From positions 1 to 56,443 of the forward strand of contig JBKPAK010000009.1 in assembly GCA_046726415.1 (NCBI GenBank): DNA of 56,443 bases. The letters are read 5' to 3'. This stretch comes from Candidatus Methylomirabilota bacterium (GTDB taxonomy: Bacteria; Methylomirabilota; Methylomirabilia; Rokubacteriales; CSP1-6). Below are positions 1,732-46,877 of the stretch, in pieces (the stretch's first letter is position 1; each line of letters opens with the position of its first letter). Position numbers and translations under genes: made by a program. The notes beneath the pieces are model-generated. The model was not told the origin of the DNA and made no database searches. It was given only the letters and a program-made list of their open reading frames with translations.

Positions 1732-3947
1732 GGCCGCGACGCGAAGTCATGGCCAGCTTCATGCTGCTGATGACCGCGAGTGTGCTCTCCGCTCTCACCG
1801 TCACGCCGACCCTGGCAGGCAACAAGCTCGAGATCAGTACCCTGTCCAACGGTCCAGACAAGCTGAGTGGAGGCGATGCGCTGGTCCAGGTCGTCGTGCC
1901 GCCCGGCACGGACCCCCGGGACGTGAAGGTCACGCTCAACGGCAACGACCTGACGGGTGCATTTTGGCCAGACCCGGCGCGTCACGCGCTGGTCGGCTTG
2001 GTGACTGGCCTGGACCTCGGAACGAACCGGCTGGAGGCGAAGGCCAAGGGCGCCGGCACGGACAAGCTGCGCATCCAGAACCACCCGATCACCGGGCCCG
2101 TGTTCTCAGGCCCTCAGGAGCAGCCGTTCTTCTGTCAGACGCACCAGTTTCGCCTTTATCCCAATGGCCCGTTCCTGACCGACTCCCAGATCGGGGATCC
2201 CTGTGTCGTCCCCCGGCGCGTCGACTACGTGTACCGGACGACGACCGGCACCTTTTCCGCGTTTGACCCCGGGGCTCCTCCCCCGGCGGACCTGGCCACG
2301 ACCCCGACTGGCGTCCCTTATATTGTTCGGCTCGAGACGGGGACGATCAACCGGGCCATTTACCAGATCGCGATTCTCGATAACCCTGCGGTGGCGGGGC
2401 CGGACCTCCGGAACCACGCCGATCCGGGCTGGAACGGCCGCCTCGTCTATACCTTCGGCGGCGGCTGCGGCGGCGGTCACTACATCCAAGGCAGCTCGGC
2501 CGGCGGCGTCCTCAACGACATGATGCTGTCGCGAGGTTTCGCGGTCGCCTCATCGTCGCTCAATGTGCTCGGCAACAACTGCAACGACGTGGTGTCCGCC
2601 GAGACCCTGATGATGGTGAAGGAACGCTTCATCGAGGCGTTCGGCATCCCCCGCTACACGATGGGCTGGGGCTGCTCGGGTGGCGCTATCCAGCAGTACA
2701 TGATCGGCAACAACTATCCCGGGCTGCTCGATGGTCTCGTGCCGCAGTGCAGTTTCCCCGATGTCTACGCCACGGGAACATTCGACGCACGGCTGATCCT
2801 GAACTACTTCGCGTACGGCGCCGATCTTCCCTGGACCCAGGAGGAGATCCGGGCTGCGTCGGGGTTCGGGACGTTCGGCCAGATCTACACGCAAGGCACC
2901 TCCTGGGCCGCGCGCATCGACCCGCTGCCCGTGCGCCCTGGGTTTCCGCCCTCCATCCCGCCCTTCCCGGCCAATCAGTCCTCCTGGCTGTACAACGCGA
3001 TCGTGCCGCTCGCCGTCCGGTACGACCCGGTCTCGAACCCGACCGGCGCGCGCGCGACGACCTACGATCACAACGTCAACACGTTCGGACGGGACGAGAA
3101 TGGGTTCGCCCGGCGGCCGCTCGACAACGTCGGCGTGCAGTACGGGCTGGCCGCCCTCAATGCCGGCCTCATCTCCAAGGCTCAGTTCCTCGACTTGAAC
3201 GAGAAGATCGGCGGCCTGGACATCGATGCCAACTTCATTCCCGAGCGCATGGTGGCCGATCGCCAAGCCACCCAGGCGGCGTACCGGACGGGGAAAATCG
3301 TCAGCGGCGGCTCGCTTGGCTCGGTGCCGATCCTCGACGTCGACGTCATCTACACCGATCTCCTGGAGGGCGGCGACGTCCACATGAAGTATTACCACTT
3401 CTCGACGCGCGAGCGGCTCATCAACGCCAACGGCAACGCGGACAACATGGTGATGTGGAACGGCGTCTTCGGGCCGCGCGCGGGCGTGCTCACCGAGGCC
3501 TTTCGGCAGATGGTGGCATGGCTGGACAACATCTCGGCGGACACCTCGGCCGCCGTGCCCGCGGTCAAGGTTGGCCGCAACAAGCCGGCGACCCTTACCG
3601 ACGGCTGCTGGACCGGTACGGCTGCGCCGTTTACCTTCGTCGCCGAGCGGCAGTTCTTCGGCGGGCCGGGCACCTCGGTGTGCAACGACCTCTATCCGGC
3701 CTACGGGTTTCCGCGGTACGAGGCCGGCATGCCGCTCAGCAACGACATTGTGAAGTGTCATCTGCGGCCAATCAATCTGGGGGACTACGCGGTGAGCTTC
3801 ACGCTACAGGAGCAGCGGCGCCTGCGCGGGATCTTTCCGGGAGGCGTCTGCGACTATTCGCGCCGCGGCGTCGATCAGCGCGACCCGCTGGACACATGGC
3901 TCCAGTACACGGACGTGGGGGAATACCGACGCGACAAGCACAACTGA
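1728..3947 (+). CDS. Secreted tannase-like alpha/beta hydrolase (DUF6351-like)
   Basis: GAGGAGG RBS before ATG 1728; signal peptide; FGGGCG and GCSGG nucleophile-type motif; C-terminal 'KC.L.P...FPGGVCDYS'. Confidence 0.8.
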   Translation: MRPRREVMASFMLLMTASVLSALTVTPTLAGNKLEISTLSNGPDKLSGGDALVQVVVPPGTDPRDVKVTLNGNDLTGAFWPDPARHALVGLVTGLDLGTNRLEAKAKGAGTDKLRIQNHPITGPVFSGPQEQPFFCQTHQFRLYPNGPFLTDSQIGDPCVVPRRVDYVYRTTTGTFSAFDPGAPPPADLATTPTGVPYIVRLETGTINRAIYQIAILDNPAVAGPDLRNHADPGWNGRLVYTFGGGCGGGHYIQGSSAGGVLNDMMLSRGFAVASSSLNVLGNNCNDVVSAETLMMVKERFIEAFGIPRYTMGWGCSGGAIQQYMIGNNYPGLLDGLVPQCSFPDVYATGTFDARLILNYFAYGADLPWTQEEIRAASGFGTFGQIYTQGTSWAARIDPLPVRPGFPPSIPPFPANQSSWLYNAIVPLAVRYDPVSNPTGARATTYDHNVNTFGRDENGFARRPLDNVGVQYGLAALNAGLISKAQFLDLNEKIGGLDIDANFIPERMVADRQATQAAYRTGKIVSGGSLGSVPILDVDVIYTDLLEGGDVHMKYYHFSTRERLINANGNADNMVMWNGVFGPRAGVLTEAFRQMVAWLDNISADTSAAVPAVKVGRNKPATLTDGCWTGTAAPFTFVAERQFFGGPGTSVCNDLYPAYGFPRYEAGMPLSNDIVKCHLRPINLGDYAVSFTLQEQRRLRGIFPGGVCDYSRRGVDQRDPLDTWLQYTDVGEYRRDKHN

Positions 3948-32002: not shown

Positions 32003-33310
32003 CTACCTGAACACCGTCTGCCCTTCGATCTCGGTCTCGAGCGCGGCCAGGGCGCGTTGCACGAGTCGCCGCCGGAATTCCTTCTCCTCGGTCCGCGACA
32101 GTGCGGGATCGCCCAGCGGGTGGGGGATGGCCTTGCCGGGAATGATCCGGTTCGGTCCGATGCTCTCGGCCAGCGGGACGATCGTCGAGATGAAGACCGT
32201 GGGAATCCCTCGCCGCTCGAACTCTTTCGCCATCGTTGCCCCGCAACGAGTGCACGTCCCTCAGGTGGCGGTGAAGATCACGCCTTCGACCGAGGACGCC
32301 ACCAGGTCGCGCGCCATCTCCTCGGCGAACCGCCGGGCGTTCGTGGTGCTGGCCCCGCTGCCCACGAACACCCAGTACTCGTGGTGCAGCCGACCGATGC
32401 TGCCGTCCGCCTCGAGCTCGCGGAGCACGTCGATCGGCAGGACCCGGTCCGGGTCTTCGTTGGCCGCGGTCGTATCGTAGCCGCCGTGGATGGACTGCCA
32501 CCCCTCGGGCATGAGGTCGTCGATGCCGGCCAGACTGTACTTCAGCCACTTGGTGGCGTACGACGACTCGAGGCGGTCGGGGTTGCCCTTGGGGACGATG
32601 CCTCCGGACGTCACCAGCGCGATGGTGGCCCGTCGCACGTCCTTGACGGGGGCCGGCGGCGGCACCCGGTCGTAGTCGGGCAGCGGCCATTCCGTCTCCC
32701 ACGGCTCGCCCCGCACGCTCTTGAGCAGCATGTCGACCGCGCGGGTCGCCGCCCGCTGGGTCGCCAGCTCGGTGAACCTGAGCCCGCGGGCGATGTACCC
32801 CTCGTCGCCCGGCGGCCCCACGGACTCCTTGCGCGCCAGCTTGAGGCCCAGCGCGGCCATCCGCTGCATCGTGGGCGCCATCGACACCGGGGTCGGCCCA
32901 CTGGCGACGATGTGGACCCGCTGCCGGCACAGCTCGACCCCGGGATTCTCGGGAGACATCCCGGTCACCGTCGCGATGCGGAGCTGGTCGGCCACGGTGG
33001 AACAGACCCGTCCGCAGGCGAGGCCGTAGCGGCCGGCGCTGAAGGCCGGCCCGGCCACGAGGAGATCCGGCGCGCGCGCTCGGATCAGATCGACGATGGT
33101 GGCGACGGCGGCGGCCTCGTGCTCGTTGAAGTAGTCGTCGCCGCAGTAGACCGTGGCGACGACCTCGGCCGCGTCCCCGAGCGACCGCTGCAACACCTGC
33201 CCGGATCCCACCCAGCCATCGCGGACCCGGGGCGGCTCGCCCGCCCGGTTCTCACCGCCGATGCCGGCGAAGAACTGGTTCACGTAGTGAATGACTCGCA
33301 CGGTCGTCAT
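32003..33310 (-). CDS. grdB: Glycine/sarcosine/betaine reductase selenoprotein B-like (435 aa, Sec at TGA 32261-32263)
   Basis: 'HYVNQFFAGIGGE', 'GPAFSAGRYG', 'VTSGGIVPKGNPD', 'HGGYD'; in-frame TGA gives TAT-U-GTCTRCGATMAKEFERRGIP, the GrdB UxxC motif; the ORF track splits it in two. Confidence 0.93.
32233..32249 (-). promoter_or_regulatory. Bacterial SECIS-like hairpin
   Basis: mRNA reads UGA-GGGACGUGCAC-UCGUUGC-GGG-GCAACGA: perfect 7-bp stem with a G-rich loop 18 nt after UGA. Confidence 0.75.
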
Positions 33311-40953: not shown

Positions 40954-41532
40954 TCGATCAATGAGAAAGCACCCCGTCGTGTAGGAACGGGTCGGAGAAT
41001 CGCGGAGCGCCACGGCTTCGCGGAGCGTGTCCCAGCGTGGGGATGGGGAAAGCTTGAAGCGGGCTCTGATTCGGCACCACGACGGCGGCGTGCCCCTGCT
41101 CGGTGCCGAAACCGCGATCTCTACGAGGTCCGGGGCGCCGGGGGATTCGCAGCCGAGCCGTGCCTTGGCGTCAGCGTCGGCGAATCATTCTCCCGCCTGA
41201 TGGATACAGGCCCGTTCAAGCCCTGATGCAGCAGCACACTGCCCACCTCGCTGGACAACCGCGCTAACAGCAGTCGTCCGGAGACGAGCATTTCGCGAAA
41301 TTGCTGCAATCCCGGTCTGGCCCTCGCGTTGCGTGCCGGATGAGTACAATGGCTCTTCGCCACCGCCCTGATCGTTGCGCTATATCGTCCCGACGCCGAT
41401 CGCGGGCGCCTCCCGATGGCGTGGCCTGTCGCACCGCTCCGACGCACTACCGCGCCTTCGTCGCCACGCCAGCGGAGGCACGGCGGAAGTTGGCTCATTG
41501 GCTCCGGGGTACCCGACTTGAGTGGCGCGCCC

Positions 41533-41561
41533 TTGTCCGCTCAGGCGGGGCGAGTTATGGT
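41533..41561 (+). promoter_or_regulatory. Putative sigma70 promoter of intI
   Basis: TTGTCC-N17-TATGGT upstream of RBS AAGGGGG and ATG 41596. Confidence 0.5.
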
Positions 41562-41595
41562 AGGGCGCCACGCGAAACCCCAAGGGGGCACGCCT

Positions 41596-42659
41596 ATGTC
41601 CGTGGCACAACTCTCTCCGTCCGCCTCGCGATTCAGTTCGCCGGTCGTTTCCTCCACGACCCGCCCTGCTCTCTCGGTGGTGAGCCCGGCCCCGCCGCCG
41701 AGGCTGCTCGATCGCGTCCGCGACGCCCTCCAGACGCGCCACTACAGCCGCCGCACCGAGAAGGCGTACGTCGGCTGGATCCAGCGCTACATCCTCTTCC
41801 ACCGTAAGCGCCATCCCTCCGAGATGGGCGCCCCCGAGGTCACCCAGTTCCTCACGGCACTTGCCGTCGAGCGCAAGGTGGCCGCCTCCACGCAGAATCA
41901 GGCGCTGGGGGCGCTGCTCTTCCTCTACCGCGAGGTGCTCGGGCAAGACTTGCCCTGGCTGGACGACCTCGTCCGCGCCCGGCGGCCGCATCGCGTGCCC
42001 GTCGTCATGACCCGCGACGAGGTGCGCGCCGTCCTTCAGCATCTCGCGGGCGTTCCCCGGCTCATGGCGTTGCTCTTCTACGGTGCGGGCCTGCGTCTGC
42101 TCGAAGGCGCACGCCTCCGCGTCCACGACGTCGACTTCGGGGCGAACCTCATCGTCGTCCGAGACGGCAAGGGAGCGAAGGATCGCGTTACGATGCTGCC
42201 GGTGCCGTGAAGGGTGAGCTGGCACGGCATCTGGAGGAAACGCGGCGCCAGCACGCGCGCGGCCTCCAGAGCGGAGCCGGCTGGGTCGAGTTGCCCGACG
42301 CCCTCGGGCGGAAGTACCCGAACGCGGGCCGTGAGTGGGGTTGGCAGTGGGTCTTCCCCGCTACACGGCTCTACTTCCACCGGGAAACCCGCCAACGGCG
42401 CCGTCATCACCTCCACGAGTCAGTGCCGCAGCGCGCGGTGAAGGAGGCCGTACGTCGTGCTGGGATCACCAAGCATGCCAAGTGTCACACCTTCCGTCAC
42501 TCGTTCGCGACCCACCTGCTCGAAGACGGTTACGACATCCGCACCGTCCAGGAGCTCCTGGGCCACCGCGACGTCGCCACCACGATGATCTACACCCACG
42601 TCCTCAACCGGGGCCCGGCCGCCGTCCGCAGCCCTGCCGACCGGATACTTGGGGCGTAG
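41596..42659 (+). pseudogene. intI: Integron integrase IntI, with a 1-nt frameshift near 42202 (possibly a sequencing error)
   Basis: '[10 protein letters not shown]', '[16 protein letters not shown]', 'YGAGLR', 'GKGAKDR', integron-specific '[21 protein letters not shown]', '[26 protein letters not shown]...TTMIYTH'. Confidence 0.93.
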
Positions 42660-42811
42660 AAGGGAACCGATGGACCATCGACTCGTCGGGCCGGGGCCGC
42701 GTGCTACCCCACGCGCTGGCGCAGTGTAGCAACGCGCGTGGCGAGGCGGAATCAGCCTGCAACCTTGCGTGAGACCAGGGCGACCTGGCGGCACCATAGC
42801 CCCGAGCGGGT

Positions 42812-42877
42812 GTGCTACCCTGCGTCGCCCGCAGCCTCGCCGGTACTACTCAGTTGCGGCAAATAAACGTTTGCCGC
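42812..42877 (+). other. Putative attI site (crossover G/TT at 42869-42871)
   Basis: GCGGCAAA-TAAACG-TTTGCCGC inverted repeat; upstream imperfect direct repeats GTGCTACCC (42812, also 42701) and GTACTACTC (42843). Confidence 0.7.
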
Positions 42878-43247
42878 GCCAGCGGTGGAAGCGAGCACCG
42901 CGAGGCCGAACTTTCCTCGTCGTCCCGGAGAGGTCATGGCAAACCGGCGTGGCCGAGAGACAGCCAGGGCAGATGCCACCGGGCGCGGCGCCCCGGGGCG
43001 GCTGCGCCTCAGGGTCCGCTGGGGTCACAAGAGCCCGTGGTTCACGGTCGGATCACTCACGTCCGACAGGCGGTGCTGCACCAGGCAGACGGAGCGCGGC
43101 GGGCTACGACGCAAGCGTGAAGAGATCAGGGCATGGCGTGCCGGTTCCGTGCCGGGGGCTGGCGCTGGGCAGGGGCTGTGAGGCGTCGAACATCGCGCTC
43201 CACCGGATCGGGGCTCGCGATGCTCGCCCCGCCCGGTGAGCGCGACG
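42870..43247 (+). mobile_element. ORF-less gene cassette, copy A
   Basis: Lies between attI and attC1; colinear conserved blocks shared with 45160-45548; no shared reading frame. Confidence 0.75.
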
Positions 43248-43253
43248 TTACAC
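43185..43253 (+). other. attC site 1
   Basis: GTCGAAC...CGCGCTCCACCGG...CCGGTGAGCGCG..GTTACAC; imperfect palindrome with an extrahelical base. Confidence 0.9.
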
Positions 43254-43279
43254 GGCAGCGCTGATGACACGGGAGGCGC

Positions 43280-43474
43280 GTGAAGGTCGGAGAGCTGATC
43301 CGGCTTCTTGAGGACGATGGCTGGCAGCTGGCGCGAACCCGTGGCAGCCACCGGCAGTACAAGCATGCCAGCAAGCCAGGTACGGTCACGGTGGCTGGCA
43401 AGCCGAGCCTGGATATCCCTCCCGGAACGTTGAATGCCATACTGAAGCAAGCTGGCCTCAAGAGGGAGAAGTAA
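43280..43474 (+). CDS. hicA: HicA toxin (mRNA interferase)
   Basis: 'LIRLLEDDGW...RGSHRQYKH..KPG.VTV...DIPPGTLNAILKQAGL'. Confidence 0.95.
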   Translation: MKVGELIRLLEDDGWQLARTRGSHRQYKHASKPGTVTVAGKPSLDIPPGTLNAILKQAGLKREK

Positions 43475-43476
43475 CG

Positions 43477-43701
43477 ATGGCAATGATGCGCTACATGGTG
43501 GTCGTCGAGCACGGTGAGACGAGCTGGGGAGCACATGCCCCTGATCTTCCGGGATGTGTGGCGGTGGGCGAGACTCGCGAGGAGGTCTTGCGGCTAATCC
43601 GCGAAGCCATCGGATTTCACATCGACGGTCTCAAGCAGGATGGCTTGCCCGTCCCAGCGCCAAGCTCGGAAGGCGAGTTCGTCGAAGTGGGGGCCGCGTA
43701 A
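43477..43701 (+). CDS. hicB: HicB antitoxin (short form, no C-terminal DNA-binding domain)
   Basis: 'YMVVVE...WGAHAPDLPGCVAVGETREE...IREAI.FHI.GL..DG.PVPAP'. Confidence 0.94.
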   Translation: MAMMRYMVVVEHGETSWGAHAPDLPGCVAVGETREEVLRLIREAIGFHIDGLKQDGLPVPAPSSEGEFVEVGAA

Positions 43702-43752
43702 CTTCGGCATGTGGCCGACGGCCTTCGGCCGCGGCTGATACCGGCGTTAGCC
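43696..43752 (+). other. attC site 2
   Basis: GCGTAAC (contains the hicB stop; complements the upstream GTTACAC with 1 mismatch)...GTTAGCC. Confidence 0.82.
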
Positions 43753-43772
43753 ATCGAGGTTGACGACAGCGA

Positions 43773-44660
43773 ATGGCCAAGGCAAAGCAGCAGAGTCCCG
43801 CTGAAGGCGCCCAGTTCGTCCGATACTTCGGACCGCTGCTTGACGCACTGCGTTCCCTCGGAGGGTCCGGAAGCCCGGAGGAAGTCGTCGAACGTATTGC
43901 GACGGACCTCAAGCTATCCGACGACATCCAGAATGAGCTTCTGTCGTCGGGCGAACCGCGGTATCGAAACCAAGTCCACTGGGCAAGATTCTATCTTGTC
44001 CGAGAGGGCCTTCTCGACTCGTCACGACGAGGTGTTTGGAGCCTTACCGAGCGTGGCCGCTCGACCGGCCTCACGTATGCACAAGCCCACCAGATCTTCC
44101 TCAAGTGGGTCCGCATCTTTCAGGAGCAGCGCCGTGCGAAGGCGGCGAAGACCGAGCCAGCCGAAGAGGTCGTTGCCGAGGCGGCCGCCACGACGCCGGA
44201 CGACCACAGAAGCGCCGTCATGGGCGTTCTTCTGAAGCTGCCAGCCGCTGGCTTCGAACGGCTGTGCCAGCGCGTTCTGCGCGAAGCTGGATTCACGCAG
44301 GTGATCGTGACGGGGCGCAGCGGCGACGGTGGAATCGATGGCCACGGCACGCTGTCCGTGAATCCGCTGGTCTCCTTCAAGGTTCTGTTCCAGTGCAAGC
44401 GCTTCAGCAAGTCTGTGTCGCCATCCCACGTCCGTGACTTCCGCGGAGGGATGGCTGGCCGCGCGGACAAGGGCATCATTCTCACAACAGGCGCGTTTAC
44501 CGCTGAAGCAAGGCGCGAAGCGTCGCGTGATGGGGTACCGCCGATCGAGCTGATAGACGGCGAGAAACTCGTCGACATGCTTGAACAACTCGAGCTCGGC
44601 CTCCGGCCCGTCAAGACGTACGAGATCGATCACCCCTTCTTCAAAGAGTTCGATGGCTAA
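43773..44660 (+). CDS. mrr: Mrr-family (type IV) restriction endonuclease
   Basis: N-terminal 'RYRNQVHWARFYL...RRGVWSLTERG'; catalytic 'FERLC...GDGGIDG...FQCKR...KGIILTT.AFT.EA...IELIDG'. Confidence 0.93.
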   Translation: MAKAKQQSPAEGAQFVRYFGPLLDALRSLGGSGSPEEVVERIATDLKLSDDIQNELLSSGEPRYRNQVHWARFYLVREGLLDSSRRGVWSLTERGRSTGLTYAQAHQIFLKWVRIFQEQRRAKAAKTEPAEEVVAEAAATTPDDHRSAVMGVLLKLPAAGFERLCQRVLREAGFTQVIVTGRSGDGGIDGHGTLSVNPLVSFKVLFQCKRFSKSVSPSHVRDFRGGMAGRADKGIILTTGAFTAEARREASRDGVPPIELIDGEKLVDMLEQLELGLRPVKTYEIDHPFFKEFDG

Positions 44661-44736
44661 CAAGCCGTTGCACCTGACGCCGGGCCTCGCTCCCTGCGGT
44701 CGCTCGGTCCGCCGCAGGTGAACGGCAGCGTTAGAC
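44655..44736 (+). other. attC site 3
   Basis: GGCTAAC (perfect complement of the upstream GTTAGCC)...GCCGTTGCACCTG...CAGGTGAACGGC...GTTAGAC. Confidence 0.93.
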
Positions 44737-44750
44737 CGGCGCAGAGGACA

Positions 44751-45156
44751 ATGGCATACGAACTCGCAGAATTCTGCATCTACACCATCGTGGATCGTAG
44801 GGAGCTCGACGCGGTTGCCGCCTCCGGCCGGGCTCGGGAGTTCTCCGAAACCAGGGCCTGGGTGACCGGCCGGCGCTTATGGCAAACCGCGAGGGGCAGC
44901 CGGGCTTTCGATGCTTGTGCTATTTGCCGACACGGCGAGGGGCGGTGCGCTTCTCTACTGGGGCATTCTTACGCAGGTGGCCCTTGATCCAAGGCGAAGG
45001 CGATACACCGTTGATAGGCTTCGACGGGTAGGTGGCGGACGGTTTCCGCAAGACCTTGTTCTGAAAAGATCGGGGAACCCGATCGCGCCCAACTTCAGTC
45101 GACCCTACGCGATTTGTCGAACGCCGGATTTCCTTGATACACGAGCCGTCCAATAA
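44751..45156 (+). CDS. Cassette-encoded hypothetical protein (~134 aa), split by a +1 frameshift in GGGG at 44893-44896
   Basis: GAGGA RBS; removing one G joins MAYELAEFCIYTIV...WQTAR to AAGLSMLVLFAD...RPYAICRTPDFL. Confidence 0.7.
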
Positions 45157-45165
45157 ACGTTCGCC
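45148..45165 (+). other. Hybrid attC/attI site
   Basis: GTCCAA (inverse-core-like, matching GTTAGAC) joined to TAAACGTT; AATAAACGTT is identical to 42862-42871. Confidence 0.7.
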
Positions 45166-45548
45166 GGACGGCGATGGAAGCGAAACGATCCGGGGCTGCA
45201 GTGGTGGGTGGAACGAGAGAAATTACGGCAAGCCACGCCGTCGAGGAGAGAGAGCCTGCGACACATGCCACAAGACGCGACAGCGGGTCGGCGTGGCCTC
45301 AGCGCCATCGGCTGTGGTCACGACGACCCCACCGCGGTGGCCGGGCCCTCACGTCAGACACGCGAGGTCGTGGCCAGGCAGACCGGCCGCCCCGGCGGGC
45401 CACGACCCACAGAGAGAGAAGAACGGCAACACTGGGGGCGGGTGCGTGCCGGGGGCGGGCGCTGGGCGAGGGGCGCAAGGCGTCGAACCACGCGGTCCAG
45501 CGGTCCTCGGGCTCGCGTTGCTCGCCCTGCGGCCGCTGACTGCGACCG
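45160..45548 (+). mobile_element. ORF-less gene cassette, copy B
   Basis: Homologous to 42870-43247; start GTTCGCC complements its own GTCGAAC with 1 mismatch. Confidence 0.75.
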
Positions 45549-45554
45549 TTAGCT
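45482..45554 (+). other. attC site 4
   Basis: GTCGAAC...CGCGGTCCAGCGG...CCGCTGACTGCG...GTTAGCT; related to attC1. Confidence 0.88.
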
Positions 45555-45877
45555 GCAGCAATCCCCAGCGCGATTCTCGGCTCGCACTCGTTCCTTACGA
45601 CCCGGCGTGGCCAATTATGTTCGAGGTGGAAGCCAACCAGATTCGGGGAGTGTTCCGAGATCTCGCGTTACGAGTGGAGCATGTCGGGTCTACCGCAGTT
45701 CCTGGGCTGTCGGCGAAGCCCGTGATCGACATTCAAGCCTCTGTCGCATGCCTAACCCCATTCGAGCCCTACCTACGTCTTCTCGGGTCCGTCGGGTATC
45801 CTCACGTTCCGCTCGGTGAATTCGATCGCGTTTATCCCCTGCTTCAAATTTGGGATAGCGGCGGGAATGCCCGATAA
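45549..45877 (+). pseudogene. Truncated GrpB-family nucleotidyltransferase cassette
   Basis: 'VPYDPAWP..FE.EA', 'VEHVGSTAVPGLSAKPVIDI'; no clear start codon, C-half and attC missing. Confidence 0.85.
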
Positions 45878-45932
45878 GAGCGCGTTCGGCGTGCATGTGA
45901 GGCTGTGAGGGGCCGTCGAGCCCCGCCGGCGA

Positions 45933-46877
45933 TCAGAGCTGGCGGAGCTTGGGGTCGAGGAGGTCGCGGATCCAGTCGCCGAACAGGTTGAAGCAGAGGA
46001 CGACCACCATCATCGCGGCGCCGGGACAGACCGAGATCCACCATGCCCGCTCGATCAGCGACACCCCTTCCGCTACCATGCCGCCCCACGTTGGCGTCGG
46101 GGGTGGGATGCCGGCGCCCAGGAAGCTCAGCGACGCCTCCACGATGATGGCCCAGCCGACCTGGAGCGTGCACAGCACGACGATCGTGTTGATCAGGTTG
46201 GGCAGGAGGTGCCGCCGCACGATGTAGGGGCCGCGCGCCCCCGCGATCCGCGCCAGCCCGATGAACTCGCGCGTCTTCCAGTAGAGAACCTCGCCTCGCA
46301 CCAGCCTGGCGAACCGCGCCCACAGGATGAGCCCCAGCACCGTCACCACGACGACGAAGCTCGGGCCCACGGTGACGGCCAGCACCAGCGCGATCAGGAT
46401 GCTGGGGAAGGCGAGGAAGGCGTCGGCCGCGCGCATGATCAGTGCGTCGACCCAGCCACCGCGGAAGCCGGCGAGGAATCCGAGGAGCGTGCCGATGAGG
46501 CCGCCGACCCCGATCGCACCGGCCGCGACCGCGAGCGAGATCCGCGTGCCCAGGATGACGCGACTGAGAATGTCGCGCCCCTTCCGATCGGTCCCGAGCG
46601 GATACGTCCAGGTGCCGCCCTTGACGAACGCGGGCGGCTTCTCGCCGTCGATGGGATTGACCGCGGCCGGGTCGTGCGGCACCAGGAGGTCGGCGCAGGC
46701 CGCCACCACGATGGCGAGGATCACGACGGCGGTGGGCAGCTTGGGCGCGCGGCGGAGGACATCGACGAGGCCCGCGAGGCGCCGGCGCGCGGGGGACGCT
46801 GGCCGGCCGACCCCGAGCGCGGTGGCGCGCGCGGCGCCCAGCGGTTCAGCGGCGGACGCGCGGGTCCACCAGCCCAT
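45933..46877 (-). CDS. Opp/Dpp-type ABC permease (OppC-like); start uncertain
   Basis: 'YPLGTDRKGRDILSR', 'EASLSFLGAG', 'FGDWIRDLLDP'. Confidence 0.9.
   Translation of the reverse strand: MGWWTRASAAEPLGAARATALGVGRPASPARRRLAGLVDVLRRAPKLPTAVVILAIVVAACADLLVPHDPAAVNPIDGEKPPAFVKGGTWTYPLGTDRKGRDILSRVILGTRISLAVAAGAIGVGGLIGTLLGFLAGFRGGWVDALIMRAADAFLAFPSILIALVLAVTVGPSFVVVVTVLGLILWARFARLVRGEVLYWKTREFIGLARIAGARGPYIVRRHLLPNLINTIVVLCTLQVGWAIIVEASLSFLGAGIPPPTPTWGGMVAEGVSLIERAWWISVCPGAAMMVVVLCFNLFGDWIRDLLDPKLRQL

Follow-up and report, generated by a model that had tools for sequence, protein, structure and literature searches.

The DNA studied here, a window of 56,443 nucleotides (nt) from a Candidatus Methylomirabilota bacterium (GenBank assembly GCA_046726415.1, contig JBKPAK010000009.1), carries an integron whose cassette array includes two related stretches without genes, which we call copies A and B. 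These very probably represent one family of gene-less integron cassettes and have diverged from each other; the family occurs in reverse integrons on the chromosomes of an uncultured soil lineage. The integron integrase gene intI (41416..42659, + strand; Pfam Phage_int_SAM_4 2e-33, with Phage_integrase matching both pieces of the gene) is followed by the core of the attI insertion site (42853..42871, +), which consists of a GTT box (42853-42855), the AT-rich spacer GCGGCAAATAAAC and a G|TT crossover (42869-42871). From there the array runs through attI, copy A, hicA-hicB, mrr, cassette 4, copy B and a GrpB fragment, after which ordinary chromosomal genes follow. The integrase gene and the cassettes lie on one strand, which makes this a ‘reverse’ (unusual) integron. 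With a covariance model of the lineage’s attC sites (R3), the window yields exactly four attCs, each of them on the + strand (43180-43255, 43691-43754, 44650-44738 and 45477-45556), and G|TT crossovers fall at 42869, 43247, 43746, 44730, 45159 and 45548. Copies A and B therefore belong to a cassette array, beside intI and attI and with four attCs in a row.

Copy A (full span, 42869-43253) occupies array position 1. Its gene-less body (42869..43184, +) has a 5′ hairpin at about 42872-42888, and its attC (43185..43253, +; 78.8 bits with R3, E 4.9e-18) has the R″ box GTCGAAC (43185-43191) and the R′ box GTTACAC (43247-43253). Copy B (full span, 45159-45554) occupies position 5 and is built alike, with a gene-less body (45159..45481, +) that opens with the hairpin TCGCC-GGAC-GGCGA (45161-45174) and an attC (45482..45554, +; 82.7 bits, E 4.8e-19) with R″ GTCGAAC (45482-45488) and R′ GTTAGCT (45548-45554). 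A BLAST search of the genome with copy A returned copy B (45246-45551; E 7.4e-23, 71% identity) and no other long match. When the two copies were aligned with MAFFT, 326 ungapped columns were 67% identical with nine gaps of 1-3 nt; including the attCs, 247 of 378 columns (65%) are identical. The original prediction, made from the sequence alone, had described two diverged copies of about 380 bp that share ordered blocks; its coordinates were right, and the blocks reappear in the alignment.

Both copies have the canonical form of a cassette. Each is bounded by G|TT, and its first letters are complementary to the inverse core in the attC of the same cassette: the starts GTTTGCC (A) and GTTCGCC (B) face the R″ box GTCGAAC, and the same holds in all relatives described below. 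The copy A attC is predicted to form a hairpin with two compensated pairs. With the whole of copy A as query, 23 of 41 genomes (its own included) gave matches, nearly all at query positions of about 311-394, which are the attC. The junctions of copy B with cassette 4 and grpB are also present in a 1181-nt contig of run X1, a soil metagenome.

Each copy had been predicted to follow directly on an attI right half. The sequence in front of both copies is indeed attI, although it is the left half, AATAAAC and then G|TT. The letters past GTT (GTTYGCCG...) are the start of the cassette itself, and other cassettes of the lineage open likewise. AATAAAC is attI sequence before both A and B and not part of the element; in one related genome (G013) and one contig of run X3, a bog metagenome, the same cassette start follows an attC instead. 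The layout of attI (GTT, 13 nt with an AT-rich end, GTT) recurs about 140-270 nt past the intI stop codon in relatives. Contigs of run X1 start or stop exactly at the attI crossover (42868-42871), which suggests that strains within that sample differ in their first cassette. A joint from 42870 to 45937 in run X1 has just 26 letters on one side, with unknown letters in between, and carries no weight here. Between intI and attI (42700-42830) lie repeats of GTGCTACC / GTGTAGCA, and relatives carry similar ...CTACAC... / ...TTATCC... motifs at the equivalent place; these repeats may be binding sites for the integrase or a regulator.

No gene was recognized in the body of either copy. Consistent with the prediction that A and B share no reading frame, none of their 18 frame pairs stands out. 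Mismatches between the copies lack a lag-3 periodicity (0.145 at lag 3 versus 0.133-0.154 at the other lags from 1 to 9), seven of the nine gaps are not multiples of three, and codon-phase GC is flat across most of copy A. None of 15 stop-free frames of A and B matched Pfam, and 14 had no match in NCBIfam at E values up to 1, the lone match being noise (E 0.2, and 10.7 bits where the cutoff is 732). A frame of copy A with a Shine–Dalgarno sequence and an ATG matches only itself among 1.84 billion representatives. A frame of copy B (45157-45549) has a single match among 5.8 billion proteins, the ‘hypothetical protein’ P0003 from a third-party metagenome. P0003 follows frame 1 of copy B for residues 1-41 and frame 2 for residues 42-114; because it switches frame relative to copy B, we regard it as a spurious open reading frame (ORF) over a third copy that differs by indels. 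When family members are compared with each other, no frame of the six scores apart from the rest (for example, 84, 82, 81, 80.5, 80 and 79 in one comparison and 63.5 down to 51.2 in another). Neither strand, then, holds a conserved or recognizable ORF.

The original prediction took the copies to be non-coding integron cassettes of one family, and further members in other genomes and in metagenomes bear this out. We built a sequence-only profile (R1) from the A and B bodies without attC and ran it on 151 genomes of the taxonomic family, where it matched G157:C425:909-1192, G157:C312:5179-5536 and 3512-3780 (two pieces) and G156:C16:12099-12407. Using the G157:C425 copy as a BLAST query added two tandem copies on G013:C139. 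In an unpublished genome (G047:C649, locus L073), 124 nt past attI belong to the family as a partial copy that scores 59.9 bits with a seven-sequence model, R2; L073 was in the training set of R2, which makes the score a matter of construction, and membership rests on the alignment. The source genome yields only two copies with R2. The search for more copies that had been proposed as a check has thus produced them in four related genomes by profile and BLAST, and the profile recovered copies that BLAST of the A and B bodies had missed. Pairwise identity among full copies in different genomes is 53-70%. In run X3, several contigs lie over the body (eight at position 45224), some of them part A-like and part B-like. 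The gene-less family is probably larger than what we found.

Other searches returned nothing that belongs to the family. BLAST of the A body against 183 genomes of the order (four candidates scored per genome) and of the B body against 251 genomes of the phylum (two candidates scored per genome) gave only short GC-rich matches. Scanning genome contigs for the exact pattern of the longest shared block found 15 loci, all chance matches of 21-36 nt. A two-block pattern scan of metagenome contigs found two loci (L059 and L060) with the same 35-nt match, both by chance; the match in L060 sits just before an ORF that we read by eye as a dUTPase gene. With nhmmer, the A+B profile reached a best E value of 0.035 on 93 loci without those of G157 and G156. 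Relatives of IntI are present in 77 of the 183 genomes of the order (the source genome included, with three matches on contigs C9, C132 and C101), at up to four matches per genome. Among 29 regions downstream of intI in relatives, the element is present in three (L073 in G047, L103 in G156 and L105 in G157) and absent from 26, and the second integron of the source genome, on contig C132, lacks it as well.

Most copies stand first in their array. Six of the eight genomic copies lie directly past an attI junction (A, G157:C425, G157:C312, G156:C16, G047:C649 and the first G013 copy), and four of these (G157:C425, G157:C312, G156:C16 and G047:C649) open at an attI crossover about 185-250 nt past the intI stop codon. 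The first G013 copy opens at an attI-like junction, ACTCAATA|GTT, as in G157:C425, and the second follows the attC of the first; no intI was found in the G013 genome at E 1e-30, and none upstream of the junction. At this locus (L111, G013:C139, 1150-2045), which holds the attI-like junction and the two tandem gene-less cassettes, copy 1 is partly masked (N). The arrays hold six, at least two, at least three and at least five cassettes. With these minimum lengths, random positions would give five first places in roughly 1 of 360 cases, a rough figure given that copies are partly non-independent and the arrays of metagenome-assembled genomes (MAGs) are fragmentary. The predicted tie to the first position after attI therefore holds as a bias and fails as a rule, copy B being fifth in its array. 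The proposed tie to defence genes is not supported by the comparison: the next cassettes in relatives are an ORF read by eye that we take to be DUF4160-like, a SnoaL-like ORF (also by eye) and a SnoaL/DUF3237 protein (by Pfam). The element is mobile by distribution, with copies in five genomes at array positions 1, 2 and 5 and, in run X3, behind an attC; no excision circle of the gene-less cassette was seen. On a tree of IntI, the five bearers are scattered (five changes for five rows, against a shuffled mean of 4.8).

Conservation is concentrated at the two ends of the element. Columns 1-30 have a mean pairwise identity of 0.76, and the roughly 140 columns from column 301 to the end, which comprise a block before attC and the attC itself, one of 0.60-0.70. 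Most of the interior, which is variable and in part dispensable, has an identity of 0.47-0.55, up to 61% gaps and indels of at least 70 nt. Copy lengths range from 292 to 393 nt, and X3 contigs skip 207-265 nt inside copy B. The two conserved ends are adjacent when the cassette is a circle, and selection therefore appears to act on one recombination module.

Apart from a short 5′ hairpin we found no sign of a conserved RNA structure, and the prediction of a structured non-coding RNA is not borne out. Neither A nor B has an Rfam match at the gathering score or at E values up to 5, and their minimum folding energies are like those of shuffled sequences (z-scores of 0.01 and −0.71). The RNAalifold consensus of seven sequences is close to zero, at −7.4 kcal/mol with 22 pairs and a penalizing covariation term of +1.74 in the sense direction, and −9.9 kcal/mol with a penalizing term of +2.13 in the antisense direction. 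The element thus has neither a match to a curated model nor a conserved fold with covariation. The sole consistent feature is a 5-bp hairpin directly past the crossover (columns 3-18) in six of seven rows, in which no pair is changed on both sides. Of the hairpins that had been predicted at equivalent places in A and B, the first pair (TGCCGC-GCCA-GCGGTG and TCGCC-GGAC-GGCGA) holds, lying at the site of this stem, and the second (CCGTG-GTT-CACGG and CCACCGCGGTGG) does not, as it falls in the poorly aligned interior outside the consensus fold. Read as DNA, the 5′ hairpin would pair GTTCGCC with GGCGATC, in our own reading an inverse-core-like box 4-7 nt further on.

As the best overall explanation, which we hold tentatively, the element is a gene-less cassette that owes its upkeep to its recombination ends and has entered attI again and again. 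All copies share a general build: a G|TT start (GTTYGCCG...) roughly complementary to the inverse core of their own attC, a geneless body of 225-320 nt and an attC of 65-85 nt. Selection would retain the two ends: on one side the first 30-50 nt, whose short hairpin spans the crossover triplet, and on the other the attC together with the preceding 30-40 nt. The interior, with its near-background identity and its large insertions and deletions, would act as a spacer. Such a cassette would be readily excised and returned to attI, and we suggest, a shade more cautiously still, that it propagates itself and persists through efficient excision and re-insertion there. Re-insertion at attI would explain why copies tend to stand first, why some are paired in tandem and why the distribution is patchy. 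A copy-and-paste route would always land the cassette first, and tandem copies could remain; signs of such a route are the tandem G013 copies, an X3 contig with a B-like start behind an attC, and the scattered placement on the IntI tree.

A cassette in first position would lie between the platform promoter and the first coding cassette and would be part of the transcript as a leader that is not translated, with whatever effect on expression this may have. In G157:C425 and G013, a strong promoter-like site (10 of 12 matches) is located 56-77 nt upstream of the crossover and directed into the array (L105, 1248-1276, −, TTGACA-17-AAGAAT; L111, 1396-1424, +, TTGACA-17-GAGAAT; both between intI and attI). 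These sigma-70-like sites are candidates for the platform Pc promoters of these reverse integrons.

Several observations weigh against re-insertion of a cassette with a free interior. The interior blocks CTCACGTCNGACA, CCAGGCAGAC and CGGCGGGCYACGAC are common to A, B and, by translation, P0003, and a pure spacer would not need such blocks. Copy B is fifth and not first. An identity of 53-70% between genomes would fit long residence better than frequent recent movement, and the recombination efficiency of these attCs is predicted only. The copies are few and non-independent, with two in the source genome (G000) and two or three in G157, and in fragmentary MAG arrays the intI-proximal cassettes are possibly over-represented among the assembled copies. 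The IntI tree is built from 150 amino acids and leaves 19 of its 32 inner branches unresolved; vertical descent with losses may also be compatible with it.

A first cassette that precedes all others could instead be kept there for expression control, as a promoter, a regulated leader or a silencer that acts on the whole array. We consider this, the main rival, somewhat unlikely, although it would account for the bias towards the first position (six of eight copies), and precedents exist: in PMC11014356, most of 29 gene-less cassettes of Vibrio superintegrons show activity as promoters on the sense strand, and in PMC6557892 both strands of the ORF-less first cassette from a Treponema-type reverse integron are active as promoters. 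Moreover, no sigma-70-like site was found between intI and attI in the window, such that the array may need another promoter. However, an in silico scan found no sigma-70-like site inside A, B or the G157:C425, G013 and G156 copies, the promoter-like sites of G157:C425 and G013 lie only upstream of attI, and no block resembling −35 or −10 elements is conserved across the family. These scans are weak negatives, as the promoters of the lineage may differ from the sigma-70-like pattern, and in silico promoter calls for gene-less cassettes disagreed with experiment in PMC11014356. That A and B might be old pseudogene cassettes, their ORF eroded past recognition, is improbable. The integron is visibly decaying, with a broken intI, a frameshifted cassette 4 and a truncated grpB, and both G157:C312 copies open an ORF, MVDGTEDIAATV..., behind a Shine–Dalgarno-like GAGGG, the first 20 or so codons of which align in frame with G156 in our own reading. 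In G157:C425 and G047, however, that ORF is disrupted, and A and B lack it; the Pfam, NCBIfam and 1.84-billion-representative searches gave no homologue, the lone protein match of the B frame changes frame, the six frames score alike between members, and a neutral relic would leave the position bias unexplained.

A structured non-coding RNA, such as a small RNA or a riboswitch-like leader with a conserved fold, is very unlikely in view of the Rfam result, the z-scores and the consensus folds of both strands, as well as the interior indels of at least 70 nt. The block-wise conservation independent of frame and the 5′ hairpin kept in six of seven rows would suit it, the latter without pairs changed on both sides. 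A precedent cited in PMC6557892, sRNA-Xcc1, is reportedly an integron-encoded trans-acting small RNA of Xanthomonas; like our element it is non-coding content of an integron cassette, unlike it in that we found no sequence or Rfam relation between the two and no conserved fold here. It is just as doubtful, or slightly more so, that the element is a fixed, non-mobile part of the platform, native sequence to the right of attI at whose attC later cassettes enter. Six loci do have it first, and in A a perfect 8-bp inverted repeat encloses TAAACG, its two arms being the left arm of attI, GCGGCAAA, and the start TTTGCCGC. Against this, the start GTTCGCCGCAC also opens unrelated first cassettes (L072 and L067), in which it matches each one’s own attC inverse core, and since an ordinary ABC-binding-protein cassette, whose own attC has the matching inverse core, begins with it too, we dropped the idea that GTTCGCCGCAC is the right arm of a native attI. 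A platform part would also fit poorly with copies at second and fifth positions and behind an attC in X3, with its absence from 26 of the 29 intI-downstream regions and from the C132 integron, and with bearers scattered on the IntI tree.

The remaining parts of the locus are as follows. The intI frame is broken near 42201-42210, which leaves two ORFs (41416..42210 and 42207..42659), and the IntI-typical stretch is present in the translation of the second. The break resembles the loss of 1 nt (after …KDRVTMLP), for which a pseudogene and an assembly error are both possible causes. Cassette 2 (43280..43752, +) carries hicA (43280-43474; Pfam HicA_toxin 3.5e-22), hicB (43477-43701; HicB_lk_antitox 7.2e-12) and an attC (43696-43752; 51.4 bits with R3). 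Cassette 3 (43773..44736, +) carries a gene for an Mrr-type restriction endonuclease (43773-44660; Mrr_cat 1.4e-29, Mrr_N 6.2e-25) and an attC (44655-44736; 56.8 bits). The last cassette holds an N-terminal fragment of a GrpB-family protein (45575..45877, +; Pfam GrpB 1.7e-21, profile positions 3-72 of 159). Across 45549-45877 there is no start codon past the copy B attC and, with the R3 model, no attC behind the fragment; this truncated cassette marks the end of the array, and a minus-strand gene starts beyond it at 45933. Elsewhere in the window, an Rfam SECIS_4 match on the minus strand (32223-32260; 46.9 bits, gathering score 38) implies a putative selenoprotein gene there.

Cassette 4 (44751..45159, +), which lies directly before copy B, has a structure of its own. 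It carries a gene for a protein of about 130 amino acids of unknown family, frameshifted near 44890-44910, and ends in a truncated attI (about 45143-45159), GAGCCGTCCAATAAAC and then G; the R3 model found no attC at its end. Its homologues, the hypothetical proteins P0001 and P0002 (130 and 134 amino acids, 54-57% identity), stop at the same point to within a few residues, and the 3′ end of the ORF is therefore complete. Ahead of the GTT of copy B, the last 16 nt (GAGCCGTCCAATAAAC) match the attI left half of the relative L074 at 12 of 16 positions, the best of 460 GTT sites in the window, whereas none of the four true attC junctions exceeds 6 of 16. An ORF without attC, a remnant of an attI left half and a crossover together make this a ΔattI-type cassette. 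In PMC12901181, cassettes of this type in class 1 and 2 integrons have their attC replaced by 14-18 nt of attI, ahead of a GTTRRRY-type crossover, were first noted by Partridge et al. (as cited there) and have been shown to be recombined by IntI1. Cassette 4 resembles those of the class 1 and 2 mobile integrons: it has the order attC-ORF-ΔattI with no attC of its own, and about 13-16 nt of an attI left half, with the stop codon inside the ΔattI, precede G|TT and the next cassette. It differs in that its integron is chromosomal, of the reverse type and from an environmental lineage, and in that its ΔattI is closer to the attI of a relative than to the resident one.

The array order would follow from serial insertion at one attI, with copy B entering first, then cassette 4 ahead of it, then mrr, hicAB and copy A. 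We had considered that copy B belongs to a second integron fused by a deletion, and dropped this because a ΔattI-type cassette, as described in PMC12901181, needs only ordinary insertions at one attI. Other candidates concerning the left flanks were also rejected. The DNA upstream of A is not recognizable as a remnant of the cassette 4 gene (tblastn best E 0.06; local score of 15 at the nucleotide level, lower than the mean of 16.8 for shuffled sequences), and a search for a minus-strand intrinsic terminator at the left end of A and B gave one weak 5-bp match, in B only, and none in relatives.

One relative carries a gene within the element (L107, G157:C312, 3420-5537, −). The first cassette of G157:C312 consists of the first 178 nt or so of the element, then a 485-amino-acid gene, then the element from position 26 to attC; there is no attC between the two pieces, and the element’s start and attC are the only cassette ends. 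The gene has its own ribosome site, and about 150 nt of the element are duplicated on its two sides; it encodes a predicted secreted repeat protein, with a signal-peptide-like start and a weak TPR_12 match. Because of this embedded gene, and because cassette 4, which lacks an attC, is joined through a truncated attI to copy B, which offers the next available attC, we raise as a long shot that an empty cassette beside attI serves as an acceptor, in which genes that land inside it or become fused to it would gain a 5′ end and an attC and thereby become mobile. If true, this would offer one concrete way in which genes come by attC sites, a question that has long been open.

The gene-less family is not a new kind of system. 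Its members have the canonical G|TT/attC form and reside in sedentary chromosomal integrons, as do the gene-less cassettes of Vibrionaceae and of oral Treponema-type integrons (PMC11014356 and PMC6557892, respectively); the first-position copies resemble in particular the published cassette TMB4, which is gene-less and first in a reverse integron (PMC6557892). Unlike those cassettes, one sequence family recurs here in at least five genomes and stands first in six of eight copies, and ORF-less cassettes are reported as rare in first position in PMC6557892 (1 of 42 and 1 of 5). No promoter-like site was found in the copies scanned here. The integron itself is arranged like the reverse integrons of Treponema denticola, Chlorobium and Blastopirellula listed in PMC6557892, with intI and cassettes on one strand and attI downstream of the intI stop codon; it differs in lineage and in an attI with two GTT boxes 16 nt apart. 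A literature search of incomplete coverage returned no report on the integrons of this lineage or on a gene-less family in first position.

A sizeable share of what integrons contain consists of gene-less cassettes, which are poorly understood, and promoter activity is the sole role tested for them so far. Here they form a recognizable family in a widespread uncultured soil lineage in which integrons are common. The pattern of ends kept and a middle left free suggests a cassette under selection for recombination itself. If so, it would be a test object for the efficiency of attC sites, for the upkeep of cassette order and for the effect of an untranslated first cassette on the expression of the array.

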